Below the pieces are notes generated by a model that ran no database searches, was not told the origin of the DNA, and saw only the letters and a list, made by a program, of their open reading frames with translations. Below, in pieces: positions 16,796-17,809 of a stretch of DNA of 64,000 nucleotides; within the stretch, counting starts at the first letter, position 1; each line of letters opens with the position of its first letter. Origin of the DNA: a virus. Taxonomy: Duplodnaviria; Caudoviricetes. The DNA lies in the IMG/VR virus record IMGVR_UViG_2920580016_000003, positions 12,918 through 76,917 of that record; one strand, 5' to 3'. The translations under genes were made by a program, and so were the position numbers.

Positions 16796-16897
16796 GTCTC
16801 AGCGGATAACTGACATTATCCGCTGAGACGGCGTAGGATCTCAGTGGATAATGTCGCCTCCGGGGCACGGAAACCCGTGGCGAAACTCAGCGGATAA
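16796..16897. promoter_or_regulatory. Putative tyrosine-recombinase site: 14-6-14 palindrome plus two direct accessory repeats
   Basis: GTCTCAGCGGATAA(16796-16809)-CTGACA-TTATCCGCTGAGAC(16816-16829); TCTCAGTGGATAA 16839-16851; CTCAGCGGATAA 16886-16897 abutting the recombinase RBS. Confidence 0.8.
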
Positions 16898-16909
16898 TAA
16901 GGAGACTCT

Positions 16910-17809
16910 GTGGGCGCCTCCGTCATCCCGCTCCACCCCACCCCCGACACCACGACAGCCAGCCGAGACGCGCTCGCCGCGCTGCACCGCCACCTCGACC
17001 GGTGCAAACTGTCGGCCAACACGGTGAAGGCGTACAAGCGGCAGTCGCGCGCCTACGTCGACTGGCTGGCCGGACCCGAGGCCGACCACGACGACGCCTT
17101 CGCCGATGTGGTCGGCGCCGAGGCCGCCGTCACCACGTGGCGGCGCCACCTCATCGCCTCGAAAGCCTCCGCCGCCTCCATCAACCAGGCGCTCGCCGCC
17201 GTCACCCTCCTCTACGCCCAGACCGGCATCCGGATCGACGTCAAACGCGTCCGCATCCCGAAACCCGGCGAGCCCCCCGCACTCACCCGCGCCGAGCAGG
17301 GCCGGGTTGAGCGGGCCGCAGCCCGCCGCGGCGCCCGAGACCGGGCCATCATCACGACCATGCTGTACGCCGGCGCCCGCGTCGAAGAATGCGGACGCCT
17401 CGACTACGCCGACCTCACCCTCACCGCTCGGACCGGCAGCCTGCGCCTGCACGGCAAAGGCGACGAGGTCCGCACCGTCCCGCTGCCGCCGGTCGCCCGT
17501 GAGCATCTCGCCGCCTGGCTGGACGAGCGCGGCACCGCAGACGGTCCGTTGTGGACCGGGCAGCGTGGCCGCCTCACCGATTCCGGCATCACCCAAGTCG
17601 TGCTCGCCGTCGGCGAAGACGCCGGCATCCCGGGGCTGCGTCCGCATCGGCTGCGCCACACCTATGCGACCCGGCTGCGGGAGGGCGGCGCCGACCTCGC
17701 CCAGATCCAAGCCCTGATGGGGCACTCTTCGCTGGACACGACTGCCCGGTATTTTCGGGCGGGTGCCGCCGAGCGGGCCGCCGTCGTCGACCGCATCTTC
17801 GAGCAGTGA
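16910..17809 (+). CDS. XerC/D-like tyrosine recombinase
   Basis: SAM-like N-terminus (LSANTVKAY); catalytic R (GARVEE), K (HGKGD), HxxR (HRLRH), H (MGHSS), Y (TARY); AAGGAG RBS. Confidence 0.93.
   Translation: MGASVIPLHPTPDTTTASRDALAALHRHLDRCKLSANTVKAYKRQSRAYVDWLAGPEADHDDAFADVVGAEAAVTTWRRHLIASKASAASINQALAAVTLLYAQTGIRIDVKRVRIPKPGEPPALTRAEQGRVERAAARRGARDRAIITTMLYAGARVEECGRLDYADLTLTARTGSLRLHGKGDEVRTVPLPPVAREHLAAWLDERGTADGPLWTGQRGRLTDSGITQVVLAVGEDAGIPGLRPHRLRHTYATRLREGGADLAQIQALMGHSSLDTTARYFRAGAAERAAVVDRIFEQ

Follow-up and report, generated by a model that had tools for sequence, protein, structure and literature searches.

The closest described counterparts of the locus studied here are the TnpI resolution systems of Tn3-family transposons. 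In Tn4430, the IRS lies upstream of tnpI and comprises a crossover core of two 14-bp motifs, IR1 and IR2, together with the repeats DR1 and DR2 (PMC2847244). DR1 and DR2 make the reaction selective for resolution and dictate the order in which the strands are exchanged (PMC2847244). Among 190 Tn3-family transposons covered by a census published in 2020, TnpI was recorded in three Bacillus elements only (PMC7157771). Our literature search found no paper linking TnpI to actinomycetes, and the recombinase family reported below has apparently not been described in these bacteria before.

We analysed a 64,000-nt stretch of DNA (the window), which corresponds to G000:C1:1197641-1261640 of the 12.4-Mb genome of a high-GC actinomycete. 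Positions 16797-17811 of the window probably constitute a self-contained, self-regulated site-specific resolution cassette of the TnpI/IRS type, which sits as an orphan in a prophage and is kin to the resolution modules of actinobacterial Tn3-family transposons. The features of the cassette are collected in Table 1. Judged from the sequence comparisons, both the identity of the cassette and the binding of its boxes by the recombinase appear very probable.

Table 1. Features of the recombination cassette, in window coordinates.
Feature	Position	Strand	Remarks
IR1, left core arm	16796..16809	+	contains conserved 12-nt box 16798-16809 CTCAGCGGATAA; position conserved in homologous loci
Central region CTGACA	16810..16815	+	6 nt, asymmetric; presumed crossover region; -35-like hexamer
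IR2, right core arm	16816..16829	-	repeat finder, homolog alignment
-10-like hexamer TAGGAT	16834..16839	+	adjoins DR1 on its 5' side; promoter scan, putative promoter function
DR1, first accessory direct repeat	16839..16855	+	box 16840-16851 CTCAGTGGATAA with conserved 3' extension
DR2, second accessory direct repeat	16886..16897	+	abuts the RBS; best conserved box across loci
RBS AAGGAG	16899..16904	+	read from the sequence; conserved in homolog alignment
TnpI-like tyrosine recombinase, 299 aa	16910..17809	+	GTG start at 16910; Pfam and catalytic residues

Four copies of CTCAGYGGATAA were found within 16798-16897, immediately upstream of the recombinase gene, where they form an inverted-repeat pair and two direct repeats. 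A repeat finder returned the arms of the pair as 14 nt each and 100% complementary, in agreement with the perfect inverted repeat and 6-nt spacer that the initial annotation had reported. The two direct copies of the box were also where it had placed them, 42 and 88 nt downstream of the first (start-to-start distances of 42 and then 46 nt), the copy in DR1 with one mismatch and that in DR2 exact. The last box had been said to touch the RBS, and a single base separates the two. The extended DR1 (TCTCAGTGGATAATGTC) was 94% complementary to 16812-16828, so that DR1 also mirrors the end of the spacer, as had been noted. The interval between DR1 and DR2 (16856-16885) carries a GC-rich pattern, CGCC..CCGG...CCGG.GCGRAA, which is loosely conserved in most loci and could represent a short inverted repeat or a site for a host factor.

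The exact 12-mer CTCAGCGGATAA occurred three times in the 12.4-Mb genome, every time at this locus. Copies with one mismatch numbered 14 genome-wide, and the sole one at this locus was the fourth box. Further matches with up to two mismatches showed no excess over shuffled sequence within the window. The initial annotation had proposed a search for a second site elsewhere in the replicon; a genome-wide search with the 12-mer found no second IRS. With a single site per genome, a single lysogen offers no substrate and no reaction is possible in it. A DNA invertase switch was rejected as an identity for the locus, as an inverted second site was absent and the weaker matches in the window were at chance level.

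The product of the gene combines a Phage_integrase domain (PF00589, 4.9e-26) with a SAM-like N-terminal domain (PF02899). All catalytic residues had been read in it from the outset, and we located the complete set at R157, K183, H246, R249, H272 and Y281. The AlphaFold2 model (pLDDT 84) has the two-domain Xer/Cre fold, and its structural matches were XerA, XerH-difH, the Brujita integrase and Cre; the PHROGs label is integrase. Against NCBIfam, the protein scored 139 bits for XerA (cut-off 220) and 126 for XerC (cut-off 335). Identity with XerC or XerD was rejected, the scores being far under the equivalog cut-offs and the family being present in 10/300 genomes of the same family of bacteria. 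It was found in none of seven congeners, and such sporadic presence is a pattern typical of a mobile element.

A total of 665 homologs were retrieved. The best 120 of the 665 span 65-86% identity, and the genera among them include Nonomuraea, Streptosporangium, Nocardia, Micromonospora, Saccharopolyspora and Actinomadura; the nearest relatives of the cassette as a whole are in Nonomuraea and other Streptosporangiales. Searched against 50,697 GenBank phages, the region gave no match at the DNA level, and at the protein level the same phages yielded distant integrases alone (≤34% identity). The best match on a Bacillus plasmid (H43) was considered as a Tn3-borne relative and rejected, its context not being that of a Tn3 element.

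Alignment of homologous loci defined the unit. About 25 loci share DNA homology bounded by the first box and the stop codon, which defines a cassette of 1,014 bp. In 16 loci from genomes and in one prophage from IMG/VR, homology with the window starts at 16797/16798, where IR1 has its outer edge, and stops at 17800-17811, at the stop codon. The sequence 5' of IR1 was unrelated among independent loci. The recombinase gene follows the site directly or is separated from it by an open reading frame of 166-250 aa, in which case site and gene align as separate pieces.

The cassette was found inside Tn3-family transposons of other actinomycetes (L009, L010, L012 and L015, with L022 likewise counted), at 73-79% nucleotide identity to the window copy and with the same IR/DR layout, which supports the analogy with Tn4430 TnpI/IRS drawn by the initial annotation. 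The first four encode DDE_Tnp_Tn3 transposases (E down to about 3e-126, with DUF4158 in L012) and are bounded by terminal inverted repeats of 43-120 nt starting with GGGG, for instance 79-123/6909-6953 in L010 and 566-685/6927-7046 in L015. Their gene order is IRL-tnpA-cargo-IRS-tnpI-IRR, and in L010 the right terminal repeat begins 5 nt past the recombinase stop. Two TnpA lineages carry the recombinase family, L009 and L010 on one side and L012 and L015 on the other, with a mutual identity of merely 28%; the resolution module has thus been shuffled between backbones. A homologous IRS is also present on a Micromonospora plasmid. The window copy, in contrast to these five, does not reside in a Tn3 transposon: neither transposase nor terminal repeats were found in the window, the rest of the genome held transposase fragments alone, and neither here nor in the other phage copies is the cassette flanked by terminal-repeat remnants. 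Many of the loci had no transposase within 6 kb. The recombinase is the sole gene common to all phage, transposon, plasmid and chromosome contexts.

Several non-phage copies showed further peculiarities. The extra open reading frame between site and gene is acidic, was seen in many of them (L011:5348-6004, L013:1373-1873, L014:1959-2459, L015:5252-6004 and L023:5366-6004), and matched nothing in Pfam or in the genome of the window; its product is probably helical. In L012 the site has been deleted and a truncated transposase is joined to the C-terminus of this product. Decayed sites were seen at L015:5260-5370, L019:5380-5480 and L070:1200-1310, where IR1 and IR2 are gone and DR1 and DR2 (in L070, DR2 alone) are left upstream of the operon. 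In L022:100-220 unrelated sequence takes the place of the IR1 arm right up to the left border of the spacer, with IR2, DR1 and DR2 intact; judged by sequence, this may be the trace expected of a core crossover with a non-cognate partner.

The initial annotation had asked for conserved boxes upstream of homologs, and these were present. The start-to-start spacing of 18/24/46 nt and the orientation of the four boxes were kept in the great majority of loci, about 20 in all. Over 13 loci, pairwise identity was 92% at box positions and 56% between boxes, and 11/48 columns were variable in the boxes vs. 47/52 between them (Fisher P = 2.5e-12). The four phage copies gave 93% and 74%, respectively (P = 0.0015). 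IR1 was the least conserved box, and in the phage copy L058 it is degenerate with two mismatches. In two independent loci (L057:7005-7034 and L065:1220-1249) the same C-to-T change was observed in both core arms (CTTAGCGGATAA), with CTCAG retained in DR1 and DR2 of both. On this sequence pattern, the two core arms seem to change in concert.

More distant homologs carried other boxes in the same layout. In five loci at 63-65% protein identity (L066-L069 and L072) all boxes were CTCCCCGGATAA, which makes a second specificity class, and in L016, at 57% identity, CTCGGCGGATAA was found in three of four boxes, with DR1 diverged. The still more distant L071 (52% identity) had no comparable site. In L068, L069 and L072 a long Gly/Asp/Arg-rich open frame was observed upstream of the recombinase core. 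The motif of the Tn5401 TnpI may resemble the present box as well.

The proteins vary along with the boxes. Eleven alignment positions separate the class A from the class B recombinases. Residues 225/229/232 are S/Q/L where the boxes have CAGY, D/D/R where they have CCCC, and E/K/L with the CGGC boxes of L016; S225 and Q229 were invariant across 37 close homologs. In the AlphaFold2 model the three residues share one face of a predicted helix (224-237), which is followed by a loop and by a helix (245-258) with H246 and R249 of the HxxR motif. Given the covariation and the position of helix 224-237 relative to the HxxR helix, we infer that it may read box positions 4-6.

That box class and recombinase lineage switch together speaks for binding of the boxes by the recombinase itself. 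The boxes could in principle serve another protein instead, be it a repressor of the phage or one of the host factors DnaA and XerC/D, or form half of an inversion switch. An HTH regulator gene does lie 2 kb away (19002-19397), TTATCCAC resembles the DnaA-box consensus, and the ATAA-N6-TTAT core has a dif-like appearance. However, the boxes accompany the recombinase gene in phages, in two transposon backbones, on a plasmid and in chromosomes, and it is the sole gene that these contexts share; a change of box class with the recombinase lineage is not expected from a conserved host protein; and a concerted change of all four boxes is hard to square with DnaA, XerCD or a phage repressor. The inversion switch is further opposed by the lack of a second site in the genome and window searches. 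We regard this whole group of explanations as hardly credible, and DnaA boxes or a foreign operator were rejected as identities of the site because the boxes travel and change class with the recombinase.

A promoter scan over 1.5 kb returned three promoter-like sites, all of them within the recombination site, at a shuffle expectation of 0.1. The best candidate combines CTGACA of the core spacer as -35 with TAGGAT, 18 nt downstream, as -10. In most loci of either box class, DR1 is immediately preceded by a TAnnAT/TAnnnT hexamer; the -35-like hexamer was not conserved across loci. Since the -10 lies between IR2 and DR1, binding to these two boxes would occlude the promoter, and from the conserved position of this hexamer the autoregulation by the recombinase that had been suggested earlier is plausible.

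The same elements can be read differently, with the recombinase acting mainly as a repressor, the site as a regulated promoter of the early genes that follow, from orf 17823-18116 on, and recombination as incidental. Besides the promoter-like elements within the site and the conserved -10-like hexamer, this reading draws on the next gene (97 aa), which starts only 14 nt past the recombinase stop and whose RBS overlaps that stop, and on Tn5401, where TnpI modulates transcription at its site (PMC7157771). It does not account for the six catalytic residues, which are kept under purifying selection and which a pure repressor would not need, and the genes downstream of the cassette differ among the phage copies. 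We therefore consider a mainly regulatory role unlikely.

The window belongs to a prophage, with genes for a C5 methyltransferase, a primase-polymerase, a large terminase and a Mu-type portal, and with a 1,581-aa open reading frame (39397-44142) that is probably the tape measure. Direct repeats of 53 bp, which mark the att sites, were located outside the window at -13156..-13104 and 73575..73626 (G000:C1:1184485-1184537 and 1271215-1271266). The right copy overlaps the 3' end of tRNA-Val(CAC), and a 413-aa tyrosine integrase (72113-73354; L060:8113-9354) adjoins attR. The att repeats, the tRNA gene and the integrase together indicate an integrated element of about 87 kb, larger than the window. 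Its left arm encodes PD-(D/E)XK and RNase T-type exonucleases. The cassette lies in the early region, about 30 kb from attL, which bears out the earlier statement that it is internal and not at an att end. No serine recombinase was found near the element.

From the resemblance of the site to known resolution systems, the initial annotation had inferred an extrachromosomal circular state. This was not supported, because the prophage has an integrase of its own and is inserted at tRNA-Val, and because a ParB domain was not found within the ~87-kb element. Identity of the cassette as a phage integrase with its attP was likewise rejected, the site being intact and internal and the att repeats and integrase lying elsewhere. 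The IRS might still provide a second integration route, by which a phage circle would enter IRS copies of resident transposons or plasmids in the manner of dif-exploiting elements. Homologous sites do occur in transposons and on the Micromonospora plasmid, and the left arm of L022 is replaced at the spacer border as a core crossover would leave it. Yet no further IRS is present in this genome, the phage is equipped with a canonical integrase and a tRNA att, and in Tn4430 DR1 and DR2 disfavour intermolecular events (PMC2847244). Such a route seems very improbable to us.

The closest homologs of the recombinase (83-86% identity) were all in phage-like contexts: L038/L056 represent a prophage of Nonomuraea, and two metagenomic contigs, L057 and L058, share synteny with the window. 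The four phage copies have retained four boxes, an open frame, every catalytic residue and the spacer CTGACA, which is different in the transposon copies. The position of the cassette is mosaic. In the window it follows genes 15858-16527, and in L056 it precedes the homologs of those genes. The gene downstream (17823-18116) was found at 84% nucleotide identity in an 83-kb IMG/VR prophage that lacks the cassette (L074:4001-4289) and whose neighbourhood is unrelated. Homology with this prophage begins at window position 17832 and that with the cassette loci ends at the recombinase stop, which places a sharp mosaic junction at about 17811-17832. Upstream of the cassette, orf63 had no relative in viral contigs.

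In a tree of 12 sequences the phage copies grouped in a single clade (93/92), and the transposon copy L009 was its sister (96/95). Because the tree is rooted only at the midpoint, it does not prove that capture went from transposon to phage. Capture from a transposon is the most likely explanation for the presence of the module in the prophage. Among the four phage copies dN/dS was 0.17-0.23 at dS 0.38-0.57.

These values bear on a further explanation, in which the cassette is an intact but idle hitchhiker, a transposon leftover or mosaic pick-up that binds its site and represses itself but is useless to the phage. Such a passenger would fit a site that stands alone in the genome, the sporadic distribution of the family (10/300 and 0/7), and the frequency of orphan or decayed chromosomal copies, in which the core is deleted (L015, L019, L070) or the gene truncated (L017, L020, L024). 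Against it, four phage copies at dS of about 0.4-0.57 retain frame, catalytic residues and boxes; dN/dS is about 0.2, with boxes 93% and flanking positions 74% identical; and in the phage copies the cassette comprises the functional unit and nothing more. That copies so trimmed, diverged and yet under purifying selection persist argues for a phage function, although it leaves unspecified which one. Recent transfers from transposons could account for part of the purifying selection, and we regard idle carriage as possible, if on the unlikely side.

The locus is most likely a self-regulated multimer-resolution module captured from a transposon. Four recombinase protomers would bind the four boxes, and strand exchange would take place across CTGACA between IR1 and IR2. 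As in Tn4430, DR1 and DR2 would act as accessory sites that promote synapsis between two sites in direct repeat on the same molecule, which would bias the outcome to resolution and not to fusion or inversion. Occupation of the boxes would at the same time occlude the promoter whose -10 lies between IR2 and DR1 and so give autoregulation. In the phage, the module would reduce replicative dimers or multimers, tandem prophages or cointegrates to monomers. Against this mechanism, it is not obvious why a phage that integrates and packages from concatemers should need a resolvase, the window copy has no partner site in the genome, and IR1 is the least conserved of the boxes. For an actual multimer-resolution role in the phage we put the chances at somewhat below even. 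A bolder proposal is that a temperate actinophage lineage has domesticated the transposon cassette as a Cre/loxP-like monomeriser or circulariser of its genome, and that the CAGY, CCCC and CGGC boxes with residues 225/229/232 constitute orthogonal pairs with a readable code. We offer it tentatively and think it rather doubtful; if true, transposon resolvases would be a source of phage Cre-like systems.

What is new here is a large and well conserved actinobacterial lineage of the TnpI-type design, carried by two unrelated transposase backbones, plasmids and prophages, together with the orphan prophage context. Three box classes that track three residue combinations on one helix give a testable hypothesis of DNA reading, and these natural specificity classes, candidates for orthogonal site-specific recombination tools in high-GC actinomycetes, are the most useful by-product. 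Trimmed phage copies under purifying selection also turn the recruitment of transposon resolvases by phages for DNA management into a testable idea.

Compared with known systems, the cassette shares its enzyme superfamily with phage integrases that act on attP. It differs from them in that its site is intact in the integrated prophage, the ends of which are marked by a separate integrase and by the 53-bp att repeats. The best sequence and fold matches were to the Xer group (XerA 5hxy, XerD 1a0p and XerH 5jjv). The core, with ATAA-N6-TTAT and a central region of 6 nt, has the layout of a dif-type Xer core site. Unlike XerC/XerD-dif, XerH-difH and XerA, however, the gene described here is mobile and sporadic, brings along a site of its own that includes accessory repeats, and does not lie at a chromosomal terminus.

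P1 Cre/loxP is likewise a simple phage-borne tyrosine recombinase of the same two-domain fold with a single palindromic site beside its gene, and the role proposed here, monomerising phage DNA, would be the same. The loxP site, in contrast, is 13-8-13 without accessory repeats, the P1 prophage is a plasmid whereas this one is integrated at tRNA-Val, and there is no close sequence relation to Cre (Foldseek identity about 16%).

The assignment to the TnpI type is made by site architecture and by the Tn3 context of homologs. Relative to the Bacillus systems, the lineage is actinobacterial and high-GC, and the spacer between the arms is 6 nt and not 4 nt. The actinobacterial transposons have tnpI at the far end, after tnpA and cargo, and not before tnpA as in Tn4430; the window copy further differs from TnpI/IRS modules in its residence in a prophage, free of transposase and terminal repeats. 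As in Tn4430, a site of about 100 bp lies immediately ahead of a tyrosine recombinase gene; in this site two inverted 14-nt motifs form the core and two direct accessory repeats lie on the side of the gene (PMC2847244). The homologs are Tn3-family resolvases, and the site overlaps promoter elements, as it does for TnpI of the Tn3 family (PMC2847244, PMC7157771). The full catalytic set and the upstream site with an inverted-repeat core plus two direct repeats, both found at this locus, are as in a TnpI/IRS module.
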